From a phage, in the sequence record PV636258.1: a stretch of DNA of 64,000 nt; one strand, given 5' to 3'. Below the pieces are notes generated by a model. It was not told the origin of the DNA and did not search any database. It saw only the letters and a program-made list of their open reading frames with translations. Of the stretch, positions 31,620-37,899 are shown piece after piece; the first letter of the stretch is position 1; the number at the start of each line of letters is the position of its first letter. The position numbers and the translations under genes are program-made.

Positions 31620-33836
31620 TTAGATTTTGACTTCTTTTTCAGCCAGTTCGGCAGTGACGGTGTATTTCACCCCATCAACTTCCACATCCATAGTGGATTC
31701 TTCCAAATCCAGGTCGGTAAACCAACCATGGCCTGCAACAATCCCATAAACTACCTTGGACAGCGTTTTGTTCAGGGCGCGGACTTCGTTGATAGCTGCT
31801 TTTGCTGCGTCTCCGATCCAACTTTCGATCAGCTTTTTCTGAGTCTCTTCCGGTACGCTGGTGATCATCGGTGATTTAACGAATGCATTGTATTCAGCCA
31901 GGGCATTAGCGATCAGCTGATCAGCGACATTCAGTTTTTTACCGTCCGTCTGTTTTTTGATAACAGACGCGATGCTCGGCAGTGAAGATGCGCCTTTGAT
32001 TTTCACATTCAATTCACGACTCATATAGACATCGGTTGATTCTACAGAAGAAGTCTTCGGTGAAAATCCATAGTCGCGAATGCCGTTTGCTGACAGGAAA
32101 TCAGCCGCTTCTTTGCCATATTTTGAAGCCAGACCAGTAGCGTTGCCTTTGCCAACCAGTTCATCACGGTAGAATTTCAGAACTTTCTGTTTTGCCTTCA
32201 ATGCTTCACGGCGCACATTGTCTGCAAAGAATTCAGCAGCACTGATATTCTTTGTCATGGCGCGGTTAACCATTGGGACACTTTCCAGATTTACAATGAA
32301 GACTTCCGGCCCACCAAACACATGAACACCCATGGCAGTCAAATCCTGTGCCACCTTAGCCCGAACAATCGGAGAATCTGCAGTGATAGGCATTGTTTTC
32401 AGGTTGATGATACCATCCTTGACAATAGTGTAATTACGATAACGCCAGGTTCCCAGCTCTTCAGGAAGTTCATATTTCTTCTGTACAAACTCAGGCACAA
32501 CAACCGTTCCGTGTTGAACTGTCTGCACACTGATGTTAGGACGTTCTGAATTATAGACCAAATTGCTGATCGGGACAATCCCTTTATCATCTGCTGGATT
32601 GAATTCGGGGGTCCAATCTTCGTGCTCGGCCAGTTTGAGCGCCAGGGCTTTACGCTCTTCTTTAGAAGTCGCATTCGCAATCTCTTCGGCCAACTTGTCT
32701 TCGGTGTCATCAACTTTCTGTACAGTACCGCGCCCAATGCTCTTGTAAGAGAATAGCGGATGCTTGGTGACGATAGAGACATCTGCTTCAGCCAGATACG
32801 TCAGAACATCAACAATGGTGGTGGCGTCTTCAGCCGGAACCATATTATAATCGATGCCATCAACTCCTCGCAGAGATTCGTCTACGATAGCCTGAGTCAG
32901 ATCGACTTTGATGTTGGAATAGTCCTGCTTGGTGAAACAGTTGCTGTATTGTTTGATGAAGCGGACGTCACCCGTCTTCTTCAGCGCGGCCCAGACCAAA
33001 TCGGCGTCCATGGTGTACACGCCATAGAATGCCAGCACGTATGCCGCCTGGGTGTCTGCCAGATTATCCAGCTGGTCGATCATGTTGGGGTTTACAACCC
33101 ACAGCTGAGAAACGCTTTCAGGGATGCTGACGTGGCCAATAGGGTGCTCTTCATCAGGATGCACGGCTAAAACAGTCGCCACACCATTTTCAACATAAAT
33201 GGCATGGGTGTAAACCAGGGGAACATCGACCACCACTTTCGGTGAAGAAGTTTTCAGCACGTTTTCCAATTCGGTCTGATATTCATTCTGGCCTTCGGCG
33301 AATACGTGGGTCGCACCAGAACGTTCTGCCATTAGCCCCAGCAGTTCGCGATTACAATACCAACCGTATTCGATGAAGGTAATGTTATCAAACGCTTTGG
33401 GCAGTACTTCAGCGGCATCCAGGATTTCATTAGAACGCCAGCAGTTGTCATATCCGTCGGTCATGAATGCCAGGTTATTAACATAACCAGGTTTATTCAG
33501 GCTAATGGCAGTTTCCGCAGCCAATTTCAGCGGCTCAACAAAACCAGTACAACCAGAAGGCTTCAGGAAACGGTCAATTAGATTATTGATCTCACTGAGA
33601 TCAGTTGCACTGTTAATCTGACGTCCGGCAAATACCGTTCCGAAATCACCGCGAGATGAAAAGTAAAGGATGCTCACAGTATCTTCCGGTTTCACCAGGG
33701 AAGGCAGGTTCTCCTTCAGATGCTTACGGACTTCTGGAAGTGAACGATACATGGAACCGGAGATATCCACAACGATTACATGGTTAGACGGCGCGACGGT
33801 CGCAACCGCATTCTTAAATGTTAATGATTCAATCAT
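31620..33836 (-). CDS. von Willebrand factor A-domain protein (738 aa)
   Basis: N-terminal vWA with MIDAS DISGS (VIVVDISGSM); long C-terminal region unassigned; ATG 33836 preferred to track start 33974 (TTG). Confidence 0.75.
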   Translation of the reverse strand: MIESLTFKNAVATVAPSNHVIVVDISGSMYRSLPEVRKHLKENLPSLVKPEDTVSILYFSSRGDFGTVFAGRQINSATDLSEINNLIDRFLKPSGCTGFVEPLKLAAETAISLNKPGYVNNLAFMTDGYDNCWRSNEILDAAEVLPKAFDNITFIEYGWYCNRELLGLMAERSGATHVFAEGQNEYQTELENVLKTSSPKVVVDVPLVYTHAIYVENGVATVLAVHPDEEHPIGHVSIPESVSQLWVVNPNMIDQLDNLADTQAAYVLAFYGVYTMDADLVWAALKKTGDVRFIKQYSNCFTKQDYSNIKVDLTQAIVDESLRGVDGIDYNMVPAEDATTIVDVLTYLAEADVSIVTKHPLFSYKSIGRGTVQKVDDTEDKLAEEIANATSKEERKALALKLAEHEDWTPEFNPADDKGIVPISNLVYNSERPNISVQTVQHGTVVVPEFVQKKYELPEELGTWRYRNYTIVKDGIINLKTMPITADSPIVRAKVAQDLTAMGVHVFGGPEVFIVNLESVPMVNRAMTKNISAAEFFADNVRREALKAKQKVLKFYRDELVGKGNATGLASKYGKEAADFLSANGIRDYGFSPKTSSVESTDVYMSRELNVKIKGASSLPSIASVIKKQTDGKKLNVADQLIANALAEYNAFVKSPMITSVPEETQKKLIESWIGDAAKAAINEVRALNKTLSKVVYGIVAGHGWFTDLDLEESTMDVEVDGVKYTVTAELAEKEVKI

Positions 33837-34005
33837 CGTTTTGACCTTTTTGGGCTTTGGAGTGTTTGGAGTTCGCGTCGGCGTTCTCCAGCATAGTTTC
33901 AATGAAATCCCGGTTGTTTTCCATTTGGGCGACCAGAACATCACTGGGACGGAATGAATTGTCAAGACAATCAAGTCCGGCGCGTTTTAATTTGTTGTCG
34001 GTCAT
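33829..34005 (-). CDS. small hypothetical protein (58 aa)
   Basis: ATG 34005 downstream of promoter-like TTGGCA...TATAAT; stop 2 nt before vWA ATG. Confidence 0.35.
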   Translation of the reverse strand: MTDNKLKRAGLDCLDNSFRPSDVLVAQMENNRDFIETMLENADANSKHSKAQKGQNDD

Positions 34006-34155
34006 CAGGCTCTCGTGAGTTATATTTCCCAACTATTTCAACATGGGACTATTATATTACGACAGGCGGTATTGATGCCAATTAATATAATAAAAATGCC
34101 CGATTGAATATAACCGGGCATTATATTATTGACAGGTTGAAATATTATTCAGAGC

Positions 34156-35028
34156 TTATTTAAAGGAGTCTACAATGGATTTGAAAATATAATCTTTGGA
34201 GCGTTGTTGTACCGGGAGTTCTCCATACGGAACCATGCAAGGGTGTTGCTTGGTCTGAGGGTCTTTGACTGGGCCATACACCCATCCCTCAGCCTCCTTC
34301 TCCGCCATCCAGCTCTCATGCGATTCGCTGGGCTTACGATCACCAGTGAGATGGAAGATAACACCTTTGCAAGCGCTCTCACGCTGCCAGGCCGGAGATT
34401 GTTCCCAAGGCAGTTGAGAGTCGTCACCAACAGACTTGCAGTATGCGCGGTTGGCTTCATGACAAATCTTGGCGATGCGCAGAACCAATGGCGAATAAGT
34501 GAGATTGAGTTTGGAGTTGGCGCGCAGGAAATCACTAACAGCCTTACGAGATTTGGCGTTGTGAGAGTCAACAACAAGTTCCATGTCATCCGGCCCACAA
34601 ACGAAAGACGCCAAGAAGCGCTCGCCATTTTCCGCTCTGAACATCACGTCCTGAATCATCACATTGAAGCCGAGGTGATAGGCCGGGCAGAGGGCGCTAC
34701 GTTCAACAGCGTATTGATCGATCCGGATCTCTGCCGTTTCCGTGGCTTTGGCCAACAGATCTTGTTCAACAAGCGCCCGGTACGCCTCCAGCTGCCACAG
34801 CTGGTCGAAGGTGTTATTGTAGGAAATCTCTTTGCCCAGGGCTTCATCGAAGTTGGCCGGGTCTATGGATGTGCTGGGCTTGGTGCCGTGAACGACGAAG
34901 CCGTTATCCATCTTGAAATGACAAGTGATAGCCCGGTGACCGCCGACTTCGCGGTCTTCGTAAATCACCTCAGCGATATGTGACTTCAGGACTTCAGGAG
35001 TGAGTTTGATGCCAGTACGAGTTGTCAT
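34156..35028 (-). CDS. RyR-domain protein (290 aa)
   Basis: C-terminal HESWMAEKEAEGWVYGPVKDPQTKQHPCMVPYGELP matches ryanodine-receptor (RyR) domain signature; AGGAT SD. Confidence 0.65.
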   Translation of the reverse strand: MTTRTGIKLTPEVLKSHIAEVIYEDREVGGHRAITCHFKMDNGFVVHGTKPSTSIDPANFDEALGKEISYNNTFDQLWQLEAYRALVEQDLLAKATETAEIRIDQYAVERSALCPAYHLGFNVMIQDVMFRAENGERFLASFVCGPDDMELVVDSHNAKSRKAVSDFLRANSKLNLTYSPLVLRIAKICHEANRAYCKSVGDDSQLPWEQSPAWQRESACKGVIFHLTGDRKPSESHESWMAEKEAEGWVYGPVKDPQTKQHPCMVPYGELPVQQRSKDYIFKSIVDSFK

Positions 35029-35036
35029 GTGTTATC

Positions 35037-35411
35037 CTATGATATTTGTTTACAGACCTCCACTACTTTACGGCACATGACGATATCGAACAAGCCGATA
35101 TGGCAATCGCGCTTCTTGATCCCCAGATTATGAGCCAGCCAGCTGTAAGCATCACTCCTGCTCCTCTGCCCACTTTTCCAGATAGGGTCAAACGACCTAT
35201 GAGCTTCCTGCTTAGCAGCACGGAGAGCGGCATTCGCCATCCTTCCCAGAGGTTGTCTACCATCCCCATGGGTATGGCAACCCACACGAGCGTCGCATGG
35301 CGAGCATCCCCAGAACTTCAGTTTGTGTAGATCTGGGCGATGAGGGTAGAGTACATCACCACTGACGTATTTGGCAGGAAGACCGCAATAATCACAAATA
35401 ACTTGTTTCAT
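35037..35411 (-). CDS. Cys-rich zinc-ribbon protein (124 aa)
   Basis: CDYCG...CSPCDARVGCHTH cysteine cluster. Confidence 0.55.
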   Translation of the reverse strand: MKQVICDYCGLPAKYVSGDVLYPHRPDLHKLKFWGCSPCDARVGCHTHGDGRQPLGRMANAALRAAKQEAHRSFDPIWKSGQRSRSDAYSWLAHNLGIKKRDCHIGLFDIVMCRKVVEVCKQIS

Positions 35412-35422
35412 ATTCTTTACCT

Positions 35423-35447
35423 AAAAGAAACCCCGCACACGGCGGGG
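35423..35447 (-). terminator. rho-independent terminator
   Basis: hairpin ccccgc/gcgggg followed by TTTCTTTT on minus strand. Confidence 0.55.
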
Positions 35448-35470
35448 TTGCTCAGGCCGGAGCCGACAGA

Positions 35471-35842
35471 TTATTTCAGGAGTTTTTCCAGTTCTTCAAC
35501 AGAGAGACCTTCCAGTTCCTGCTGTTTCTTACGCTGGATCAGTTCCATGATCGCCTGGTTATTCGCTTTACGTTCGGCGGCGGTTGCGCTTTCGTCACGT
35601 TCTTTCAGTTTAACACCGATGATCGCTTTCACGATATCGAAACGCAGTTGTAACTGAGAGTCGACTGCGCTTTTCACGCCGATGAAATCTTCTTCATCGC
35701 TGGCGGCTTCCTTCACCTGACGGCTGAGGTCTTTCGCCAGTTCGTTTAGGGCATTCAGGTTCAGATCCCAAACCTGCTCAACAGACAGCAGACCTTTGTT
35801 AGAGTTGAAACGCAGTTTTAAACGGGTTGCTTGATCAAACAT
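35471..35842 (-). CDS. hypothetical coiled-coil protein (123 aa)
   Basis: ATG 35842 with AAGGAA SD. Confidence 0.55.
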   Translation of the reverse strand: MFDQATRLKLRFNSNKGLLSVEQVWDLNLNALNELAKDLSRQVKEAASDEEDFIGVKSAVDSQLQLRFDIVKAIIGVKLKERDESATAAERKANNQAIMELIQRKKQQELEGLSVEELEKLLK

Positions 35843-35880
35843 TTCTTTGTTCCTTATTACGAATTTGTGGTCAAAATCAA

Positions 35881-37899
35881 TTAGAAAATGACTTTTACAG
35901 TACGGTTAAACGCGCCGGACACTTTGACGAACACGTGGTTGCGTTGCGTCGTTGAGAATCCCAGACCGGACAGTTGGTTTTCATTCGGCTGGACTTTCAT
36001 TTTACTACCCAACATTTCAAAAACCTTACGATGTTTATCCAGTTCTGGCTTCAGATATTCGTTGTAGAAACCACGAGTACCTTCAGGATTAGCACAGCCT
36101 TCAAGAATGAAGAACACGTGCTTGTTACCAGTTTGCTCCCCATCCCAATGGTTTGGTGAATTCAGGACCAGCTGTACTTTCTGGAAGGTCGCAGTCTTGA
36201 TACCCCAAACTTCTTTAGACTTATCAACATTAGCCAGTTCGGACTTAATGCCAACAACTTGTTTGTCTTTAACAGTCAGGATGACTGCAGTGATACGCCC
36301 CTGATCTTTCAGGCCAGGATGGCTGAAACGATGCGTTGCGCCTTTGTATTCTACTTCGACTTCAAACCCTTCGTCGATTTTTTCACGTTGATTGTAGTTG
36401 TGGATTTCGAAACGGTATTCACCATCGCGCAGCTTGCTTTCATCTGTAAAGATGATATTTTCCACCGGAGCGCGGTTTGGATCAATACCATCCATACCGT
36501 TCATATCGATATCCAGATGGGCACCTGTCATAGAGCGGCGATCGCGGAAGTAAACGTGCTCCATGTTGTTGAACATATGCAGATCGAGGTCGTCGTTATT
36601 GTGCCACGCCAAGGAAACGCGCAGATACCCGTCAACTTTACCACCAGCAGCCTTTACACGTTCTTTAATGGAATCGGTCACTTCACCGTTGTAAGACCAG
36701 GAGAAACCGTTGTTCCACTTGAACAGGTTAGGCGCATCTGGGTTCGCCGGAGCAACCAGGGACATCAGGTTGCTAGTGTGAGAATTCTCTACAAGCACTT
36801 CCATTGAATGCGCTTTTGGCAGAACATTGCTCAGGAAATCATCAACGCTGATCTCTTCAACTTTTTCCAGGGACTTGGTCGGAGTTTTCACTTCGGCGGC
36901 CAGCTGAGCAAACGGATCCATCGCTTTCTGAGCAGCCAGGTCGGCAAACAGAACGTTGTTGATGGTCAGATCATCGTAAACCGCATAACGACGCGCCAGT
37001 GAGTCTTCCAAACCCAGAGCAATAACTTCTTTCTGAGCGTTTTCGATCATGGATTTTGAAACCAGCGCTGTCGGACGTTTGTAGTTCGCCGGAGCAACTT
37101 TGGATTCAAACGATTTAACAGCCTTTTCCAGTTCCACGCCTTCGCTGATATCTGTCAGCAGAGTGCCGATAACTGTGTTACGGATGCCGTGTGGAACATG
37201 ATTGTTTGAACGGTATCCAGTATGCCATGCCCAAAGAGAACGGGCTGATTCGGGGACTTGTTCATATGCCTTTTTGGTTTCAACAAATCCCTTCACTGCT
37301 GCTTTGTGTTCTGCGCCGCGATACAGAGAATTCTGGTCAATCAGTTCCAGAACGATTTCAGCTGATTCCAGAGTAATTTCACGCAGACCGCGTTCAAACA
37401 ATTCAATAGCCTGGCGGATTTCACCTTTTTTCGAAGCGATTGCGTCCGGACGCAGAACATAGCTACCAAGTAATTGGGTATGGAAATGATTGTAAGTACG
37501 GATTTTGCCATCTTCACCAGATTCGTGATTGTGAGACAGGCCGACTTTGGCAGAATCGTTAAAATAAACATCGACGATTGCGTGTTGTTTGACATAAGCG
37601 GAAAGAGCCGCAGCCACCACGTCATATTCATTACCCAGATCAATGTTGTCCCAGATGGAAATCACGTTCAGCTCTGAATCGATGGTGACAACACCGCCGA
37701 TGTTACGGATGAATTGTTTACAGCAGGTGCAATCGTGTTCAGTACGTTCGCGGTACAGCGGGTTAGTACCAGCAGGGAAAGATGCCAGATACAGATCCCA
37801 AAGAGCATCTTTATCGATATTGGTCATGAACAGACCAGTTGCGGACATCGCCAGCACGTTGTTATTAACTGCCGTTGCGAAGGGTTTGAATTCTGCCAT
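35881..37899 (-). CDS. large hypothetical protein (672 aa)
   Basis: ATG 37899 with AGGAAG SD; no family-B polymerase, P-loop or other recognisable motif. Confidence 0.7.
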   Translation of the reverse strand: MAEFKPFATAVNNNVLAMSATGLFMTNIDKDALWDLYLASFPAGTNPLYRERTEHDCTCCKQFIRNIGGVVTIDSELNVISIWDNIDLGNEYDVVAAALSAYVKQHAIVDVYFNDSAKVGLSHNHESGEDGKIRTYNHFHTQLLGSYVLRPDAIASKKGEIRQAIELFERGLREITLESAEIVLELIDQNSLYRGAEHKAAVKGFVETKKAYEQVPESARSLWAWHTGYRSNNHVPHGIRNTVIGTLLTDISEGVELEKAVKSFESKVAPANYKRPTALVSKSMIENAQKEVIALGLEDSLARRYAVYDDLTINNVLFADLAAQKAMDPFAQLAAEVKTPTKSLEKVEEISVDDFLSNVLPKAHSMEVLVENSHTSNLMSLVAPANPDAPNLFKWNNGFSWSYNGEVTDSIKERVKAAGGKVDGYLRVSLAWHNNDDLDLHMFNNMEHVYFRDRRSMTGAHLDIDMNGMDGIDPNRAPVENIIFTDESKLRDGEYRFEIHNYNQREKIDEGFEVEVEYKGATHRFSHPGLKDQGRITAVILTVKDKQVVGIKSELANVDKSKEVWGIKTATFQKVQLVLNSPNHWDGEQTGNKHVFFILEGCANPEGTRGFYNEYLKPELDKHRKVFEMLGSKMKVQPNENQLSGLGFSTTQRNHVFVKVSGAFNRTVKVIF

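Follow-up and report, generated by a model that had tools for sequence, protein, structure and literature searches.

An Acb4-RyR fusion protein encoded by a phage as a candidate dual sponge for CBASS and Thoeris signals

In a 64,000-nucleotide stretch of the phage sequence PV636258.1 (the window), the open reading frame (ORF) list places a gene for a 290-aa protein on the minus strand at 34156..35028 (stop codon 34156-34158 included; phrog_4435). Its uninterrupted ORF joins an N-terminal Acb4-family (anti-CBASS 4) domain, PF13876, to a middle domain and a C-terminal RyR/R12-like domain, PF02026, and thus carries members of two established sponge families. From sequence and by analogy with related fusions, we consider it probable that this protein acts as a dual sponge through its Acb4 and RyR parts, and that the zinc-ribbon (DUF3268) gene immediately upstream is a neighbour only. 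An earlier note on this DNA, which gave the same coordinates for both genes, had described an RyR-domain protein that might form a functional module with the zinc-ribbon protein; it overlooked the PF13876 domain within the same ORF. Its interpretation is partly right, outdated as to RyR function, and wrong about the partner.

Domain architecture and ligand residues

The RyR part (residues 179-290; 34159..34494, minus strand) matches Pfam RyR PF02026 over residues 235-279 (E 1.9e-10; 41.3 bits, where the gathering cut-off is 27.4), which bears out the signature that the earlier note had read in the ORF. Against the PDB, this region retrieves the repeat domains of RyR1-3 (E 1e-13 to 1e-19), the phage protein RyDEP (35TM, chain 35tm_A; E 4e-11) and a Bacteroides RyR-like protein (3NRT, chain 3nrt_A; E 5.6e-9), a sequence similarity far beyond chance; GenBank OM681507 already labels the gene 'RyR domain-containing protein'. 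An AlphaFold2 (AF2) model of the monomer, built with 91 homologues (pLDDT, the predicted local distance difference test, 93.5; predicted template modelling score, pTM, 0.81), divides the protein into a beta-sheet with a long helix (1-97), a second beta-sheet with a helix (98-178) and a C-terminal domain of four helices (179-290). In this model the helices of the RyR domain span residues 180-199, 213-227, 233-246 and 273-289, and the four-helix R12-like fold is present.

The function of RyR domains outside eukaryotic receptors, which the earlier note took to be unknown, has been addressed by two preprints of May and June 2026, in which RyR-domain proteins from phages either trap the Thoeris signals 2'/3' cyclic ADP-ribose (2'/3'cADPR) or cleave them (PMC13232231; bioRxiv 10.64898/2026.06.04.730250). 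They answer that question, and the window protein opens no new one about RyR domains. Lopez Rivera et al. (bioRxiv 2026; PMC13232231) describe RyDEP, gp78 of phage DyoEdafos (PDB 35TM), an inverting glycosidase that converts 2'/3'cADPR into linear ADP-ribose (ADPR); in its pocket, H75 and D117 form the catalytic dyad, W78 lies on the adenine and H100 is placed at the phosphates (PMC13232231). Eight other phage homologues were assayed as isolated R12-like domains and, according to the accessible part of that preprint, six of the eight bound cADPR and none cleaved it (PMC13232231). H4 and H7 are nanomolar sponges that block Thoeris in vivo (PMC13232231). The supplementary table lists the cloned H4 sequence with a C-terminal tail identical to that of H1, and the cloned H3 sequence as starting with 'MLLVDFSD', without the RyR core that contains His/Trp and GW.YG (PMC13232231). 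H3 is probably one of the two reported non-binders, the RyR core being absent from the listed clone. The other preprint characterizes RyR Tad, gp68 of Pectobacterium phage CB1 and the same protein as H7, a dimeric sponge with a dissociation constant of ~43 nM for 1''-3' gcADPR (bioRxiv 10.64898/2026.06.04.730250). It blocks type I Thoeris in vivo, and its residues H129/W132, K147/H154 and K170/D171 were validated by mutagenesis (bioRxiv 10.64898/2026.06.04.730250). The dimer interface of RyDEP and RyR Tad is formed by the first and last helices (PMC13232231; bioRxiv 10.64898/2026.06.04.730250). In the binding pocket described for these homologues, lined by His, Trp, Asp and Lys side chains, a His and an Asp also reach the ligand's terminal ribose.

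All of these ligand residues are conserved in the window protein. By alignment to RyDEP and RyR Tad, the RyDEP residues H75/W78/H100/D117 are found as H237 (34318-34320), W240 (34309-34311), H262 (34243-34245) and D279 (34192-34194), and the six validated residues of RyR Tad as H237/W240/K255/H262/K278/D279, with K255 encoded at 34264-34266 and K278 at 34195-34197 (all on the minus strand). The His/Trp pair belongs to helix 3, the Lys/His pair to the loop and the Lys/Asp pair to helix 4. The RyR domain shares 54.5% identity with RyR Tad/H7 over 132 residues and 54-66% with the clade of the binders. The closest match is H6 of the assayed panel (UniProt A0A0C5PQF8, Salmonella phage), with 288 of 290 residues identical; the two differences, R169C and N175D, lie outside residues 179-290, which are 100% identical to the H6 construct cloned in PMC13232231.

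The N-terminal domain (residues 1-97; 34738..35028, minus strand) matches Pfam Phage_gp49_66 PF13876 over residues 9-84 (E 1.5e-11, 45.1 bits against a cut-off of 27), the family to which Acb4 has been assigned (Chang et al., bioRxiv 2024.12.30.630793). A profile built from homologues of this domain finds Acb4 in the PDB (9e4w, E 3e-8), with 18% identity to SPO1 Acb4; a single-sequence phmmer search with the N-terminal 105 residues did not retrieve Acb4 from the PDB, and the homologue profile was required. [quoted passage not shown] Acb4 of Bacillus phage SPO1 (PDB 9e4w) is a tetramer whose inter-subunit pockets sequester 3'3' cyclic GMP-AMP (3'3'-cGAMP) and related signals of the cyclic oligonucleotide-based antiphage signalling system (CBASS) (bioRxiv 2024.12.30.630793). 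All eight Acb4 homologues assayed bound 3'3'-cGAMP despite their divergence, and some members of the family carry 'additional extensions' (bioRxiv 2024.12.30.630793).

Between the two sponge-family domains lies the middle domain (residues 98-178; 34495..34737, minus strand), predicted by AF2 to consist of four beta-strands and a long helix. No sequence match to it was found in the PDB, no profile similarity to the Acb4 domain was detected (hhalign probability 5.8%), and a search of BFVD returned only Ackermannviridae orthologues. A phmmer search of 1.84 billion representatives yielded the domain's own cluster and one weak match (E 5e-5), a 1092-aa protein aligned in six stretches. As far as these searches reach, the middle domain is restricted to Ackermannviridae, an orphan without detectable relatives outside the family.

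Recurrent sponge fusions and variation of the gene

A pattern scan of IMG/VR with a four-sequence RyDEP alignment gave 80 diverse viral loci with an RyR relative and flanks of up to 10 kb. An Acb4 domain is encoded in the same ORF as RyR at 18 of these 80 loci, in at least 11 distinct architectures. Two loci show the reverse order, with RyR N-terminal and Acb4 C-terminal (L042, 7847-8578; L073, 9830-10870); both domain orders being seen, the Acb4-RyR fusion arose independently more than once. At eight further loci of the 80, a stand-alone Acb4 gene lies within 10 kb of RyR, directly adjacent in three cases, and a search of 5.8 billion proteins returned many that combine PF13876 with PF02026. 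RyR is also fused to the Acb2/Tad1 hairpin sponge domain (PF24729), in the proteins P0061, P0085, P0092, P0097, P0103 and P0119 and at locus L008 (6001-6549). Judging from these gene architectures, what recurs as the functional partner of RyR is a further sponge domain and not a zinc ribbon.

We found no mention of the Acb4-RyR combination in the papers searched: the words 'Acb4', 'fused' and 'full-length' do not occur in the RyDEP preprint, and the fusion-mining paper on sponges does not mention RyR. In the accessible part of Table S3 of the Acb4 paper there is no intact Acb4-RyR fusion, only Kuttervirus variants with the RyR core deleted (bioRxiv 2024.12.30.630793). Likewise, no mention of the Acb2/Tad1-RyR combination was found in the papers on these sponges.

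Within Ackermannviridae the orthologous gene exists in at least three forms. Dickeya phage Ds9CZ (Limestonevirus) encodes a 114-aa protein with Acb4 alone (A0A7L4YGI5 in BFVD), 70% identical to the Acb4 domain of the window protein. Vi01, ISTP3, allotria, CRW-SP2 and Klebsiella phage RCIP0012 encode proteins of 241-264 aa with Acb4, a divergent middle domain and RyR helices 1, 2 and 4. In these RyR-deleted forms, P0022, P0031, P0036 and P0048 among them, a clean deletion has removed 33-34 residues of the 40 containing H237, W240 and H262. The RyR domain is intact in the window, in PM10 and in Erwinia phage phiEa2809 (H8). A tblastn search detects the Acb4 domain (60% identity or more) in 247 phage records and intact RyR (80% or more) in 76. 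Forms with an intact RyR pocket account for about 76 phage records, those with the pocket deleted but the predicted dimerization helices kept for about 170. Since most orthologues keep Acb4 while losing the RyR core, the Acb4 part is the conserved core of the protein.

The stand-alone Acb4 orthologue of Limestonevirus hints at an ancestral Acb4 gene that acquired the middle and RyR domains within Ackermannviridae. In sister Kuttervirus variants only 13-22 of 85 middle-domain residues are identical; for allotria (P0022) the figures are 82 of 90 for the Acb4 domain versus 18 of 85 for the middle domain. This step points to a recombination junction at the Acb4/middle boundary (~34740, residues 90-100). 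The helices kept in the deleted forms include those that form the dimer interface of RyDEP and RyR Tad, and the remnant may persist as a dimerization element.

The DUF3268 neighbour and its transcriptional context

The second gene of the pair (35037..35411, minus strand; PF11672, phrog_1934), taken from the same ORF list, encodes a 124-aa protein with the DUF3268 'zinc-finger-containing domain' (E 1.3e-36) and a CxxC...CxxC arrangement, so that the earlier description of it as a Cys-rich zinc-ribbon protein holds. Its cysteines C6, C9, C36 and C39 are invariant across 28 DUF3268 homologues, as are H71, H104 and C113; C45 and H46 are nearly invariant. These extra conserved Cys and His residues suggest a second metal site or an active site. 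The homologues are all single-domain proteins of 79-173 aa and give no fusion clues, and a DUF3268 profile finds in the PDB only a weak generic zinc-ribbon match to MasE (E 6e-4). Scans with PADLOC and NCBIfam gave no match for the 290-aa or the 124-aa protein and, for three neighbour proteins, only weak matches below the cut-offs, such as a VWA domain.

Both ORFs lie on the minus strand, 8 nt apart, in a 2-kb region that Salmonella phages PM10, Chennai and SM5 share at 100% identity and that has matches in 210 phage records; SM5 is classified as Ackermannviridae; Cvivirinae; Kuttervirus. Two putative hairpins, both recognized as consensus matches only by a scan and by reading of the sequence, flank the pair on the same strand. 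A GC-rich hairpin with an 8-bp stem followed by TCTTTT (35429..35449) is located between the stop codon of the upstream gene (35471) and the start codon of the DUF3268 gene; a terminator-like hairpin with an 11-bp stem and a T-run (34095..34122) sits 34 nt past the stop codon of the 290-aa gene. Just 17 nt separate the first hairpin from the start codon of the DUF3268 gene downstream of it, too few to hold a promoter; transcription of the pair must pass through this hairpin or begin at a promoter-like site (35499-35470) inside the upstream gene. The single transcription unit suggested by the earlier note is compatible with the 8-nt gap and the flanking hairpins, and we regard a two-gene unit as plausible from the sequence, with the DUF3268 gene probably co-transcribed with the 290-aa gene; the functional pairing drawn from it is not borne out. 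Rfam, searched with the entire window at gathering thresholds and with 33900-35900 at E<=10, produced no credible match, and the region upstream of the zinc-ribbon gene showed no DUF3268 RNA motif.

The pair belongs to a long minus-strand block. On one side it is bordered by a 738-aa VWA-domain protein (31620..33836, minus strand; phrog_2426), and on the other by uncharacterized genes, followed by RegA, the clamp loader, UvsW and UvsY. The flanking gene on this second side (35881..37899, minus strand; phrog_1735) encodes a 672-aa protein without a Pfam match; it and the VWA-domain protein are both conserved in Ackermannviridae and have no known function.

A two-gene functional module, in which the zinc protein would regulate, assemble with or target the RyR protein, draws on the 8-nt spacing on one strand, the hairpins on both sides, and the adjacency of the two genes in all five Ackermannviridae loci, including an Erwinia phage in which DUF3268 is only 54% identical. 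We nevertheless judge it very unlikely, as the co-occurrence across viruses fails. At 72 of the 80 RyR loci there is no DUF3268 gene in the flanks, and the eight that have one comprise these five, where it is adjacent, upstream and on the same strand, and three closely related contigs where it lies 5-7 kb off on the opposite strand. RyR has no DUF3268 gene beside it in Pseudomonas phage Epa33, Pectobacterium phage Nepra, a Kluyvera P22-like prophage and a metagenomic podovirus, as in the Hollowayvirus, Schitoviridae and P22-like prophage RyR loci examined. Erwinia phage Rexella has both genes but at a distance of 36 kb: DUF3268 is grouped with early genes, and RyR lies close to the gene for the virion RNA polymerase. 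Conversely, Ea9-2, phiC725A and VvAW1 have DUF3268 among early genes and no RyR match in the ~7-kb stretches examined. In the phage database DUF3268 occurs in 682 records versus 298 for this RyR domain, with largely different host groups: the hosts of DUF3268 phages include many Vibrio, Enterococcus and Xanthomonas, groups absent from the listed RyR host counts. In phage CRW-SP2, moreover, DUF3268 still adjoins an orthologue devoid of the RyR ligand core (locus tags 00199 and 00200), an observation that again favours conserved gene order over an RyR-specific partnership. Lastly, the RyR domain alone suffices for Thoeris inhibition in homologues (PMC13232231; bioRxiv 10.64898/2026.06.04.730250). 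The adjacency is best read, from these comparisons, as conserved gene order within Ackermannviridae, and on present evidence DUF3268 would not be part of the sponge mechanism. It may be added, as an observation on DUF3268 itself, that its gene is always among the early genes in N4-like, F116-like and VvAW1 phages.

Proposed mechanism and comparison with known systems

Based on the above data, we propose that the window protein would withhold two kinds of signal from the host defence. The C-terminal domain would dimerize through its first and last helices, and its pocket would bind 2'/3'cADPR with W240 on the adenine, H262 at the phosphates, and H237 and D279 at the terminal ribose, keeping the cADPR signal from the Thoeris effector. 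The N-terminal Acb4 domain would assemble into a tetramer and trap CBASS cyclic dinucleotides, 3'3'-cGAMP for example, in the pockets between its subunits. In the assembled protein, tetramerization of the Acb4 core would be combined with dimeric pairing of the RyR domains, on the pattern of Ab09 gp59. Thoeris and CBASS would thereby both be blunted by a single early or middle phage protein. The dual activity within one polypeptide is inferred by analogy with Acb4-Tad2 and Acb4-Sequestin.

If this is correct, a single Kuttervirus gene would disarm Thoeris and CBASS, which rank among the most common nucleotide-signalling defences. Kuttervirus phages serve in the biocontrol of Salmonella and E. 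coli O157. Close relatives naturally either have or lack the Thoeris-binding pocket, a difference that could help to predict and engineer host range. Acb4-RyR would also extend the short list of sponge-sponge fusions and support fusion to a known sponge as a route to the discovery of new anti-defence domains.

Several points weigh against this dual-sponge proposal. SPO1 Acb4 contacts its ligand through K36, F48, E49, V56, Y57, F62, N63, I66, T70 and K81 (bioRxiv 2024.12.30.630793). In the hidden Markov model alignment about four of these ten contacts are conserved or similar in the window protein (R32, F44, F60, L64), and V45, S54, I55, D61, I68 and Q79 differ; in particular, E49, Y57, T70 and K81 are replaced by V45, I55, I68 and Q79. 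Because few SPO1 contact residues are kept, the ligand specificity of the Acb4 half, and even binding by it, is a prediction from family membership. H6, whose cloned C-terminal domain is identical to that of the window protein, was assayed as the isolated domain and not as the full-length protein, and the accessible text of the preprint gives six binders among eight without placing H6 (PMC13232231). The proposed assembly would combine a tetramer-forming and a dimer-forming domain around an extra middle domain, and our structural model is that of a monomer only. The 8-nt spacing and the flanking hairpins may also leave room for some relation to DUF3268.

The same observations feed the possibility, unlikely in our estimate, that one half only is a working sponge, either because Acb4 serves as a tetramerization scaffold or because the RyR domain of this lineage (H6) is one of the two non-binders and Acb4 is active. 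The four dissimilar replacements among the ten SPO1 contacts would fit the former and the two of eight RyR homologues that failed to bind cADPR, whose identities are not given in the accessible text (PMC13232231), the latter; most Ackermannviridae orthologues, too, keep Acb4 and the RyR helices with the ligand core gone, and Dickeya phages keep Acb4 alone. Opposed to this are the binding of 3'3'-cGAMP by all eight diverse Acb4 homologues (bioRxiv 2024.12.30.630793), the RyR ligand residues, all intact in a domain of the binders' clade, and the H3 clone without an RyR core, which probably accounts for one non-binder. That the RyR domain is instead an enzyme like DyoEdafos RyDEP, an inverting glycosidase acting on 2'/3'cADPR, appears to us highly improbable: both residues of the catalytic dyad, H75 and D117, are present as H237 and D279, and W240 and H262 are kept as well, but no other assayed homologue cleaved cADPR despite conserved residues, in a panel that includes the identical H6 (PMC13232231), and the annotated neighbours of the 290-aa gene revealed no NARP1 NAD-salvage operon, unlike those in DyoEdafos. 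Because the preprint saw no catalysis outside DyoEdafos RyDEP, we read the RyR domain, by analogy, as most likely a sponge and not a glycosidase. We give a small chance to the protein being more than the sum of two known sponges. The middle domain might act as a third module, for ligand binding or regulation, within a rigid assembly of three domains; the split between intact and deleted RyR pockets could reflect counter-selection by the host, for example by Panoptes-type guard systems that respond to removal of a signal by a sponge; and DUF3268 might regulate or assist the sponge specifically in Ackermannviridae.

The dual-sponge protein that we favour can be set beside several characterized systems. 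With DyoEdafos RyDEP it shares the Pfam family, 42% identity over 76 aligned residues and the four key residues; RyDEP, however, is a catalytic, single-domain enzyme of 138 aa encoded in a NARP1 operon, whereas the window protein has three parts and its RyR domain, as H6 in the assayed panel, is reported to be non-catalytic. The RyR half has thus already been cloned and assayed as H6, in a preprint that does not mention the N-terminal Acb4 and middle domains. RyR Tad is closer in design, a two-domain protein with RyR at the C-terminus and six mutagenesis-validated residues in common with the window protein; the N-terminus of gp68 is a five-stranded beta-sheet fold for which neither a Pfam match nor an activity was detected, whereas that of the window protein is Acb4 followed by the extra middle domain. 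SPO1 Acb4 is a stand-alone protein of 96 aa, whereas the Acb4 domain of the window is fused to two further domains.

The nearest parallels are the fusions of Acb4 to other anti-Thoeris sponges. Acb4-Tad2 of Pasteurella phage Pm86 blocks type I Thoeris and CBASS (fusion-mining paper), and Acb4-Sequestin fusions are common (Pseudomonas phage YH6 and gp59 of phage Ab09), those assayed inhibiting CBASS and Thoeris. Ab09 gp59 is a tetramer and its Sequestin half alone a dimer (bioRxiv 10.64898/2026.06.04.730250). As in the window protein, these fusions place Acb4 and an anti-Thoeris sponge domain in one polypeptide. They differ from it in that the partner here is an RyR/R12 domain and an orphan domain of 80 residues lies between the two, which makes Acb4-RyR a new addition to the known fused anti-signalling sponges.

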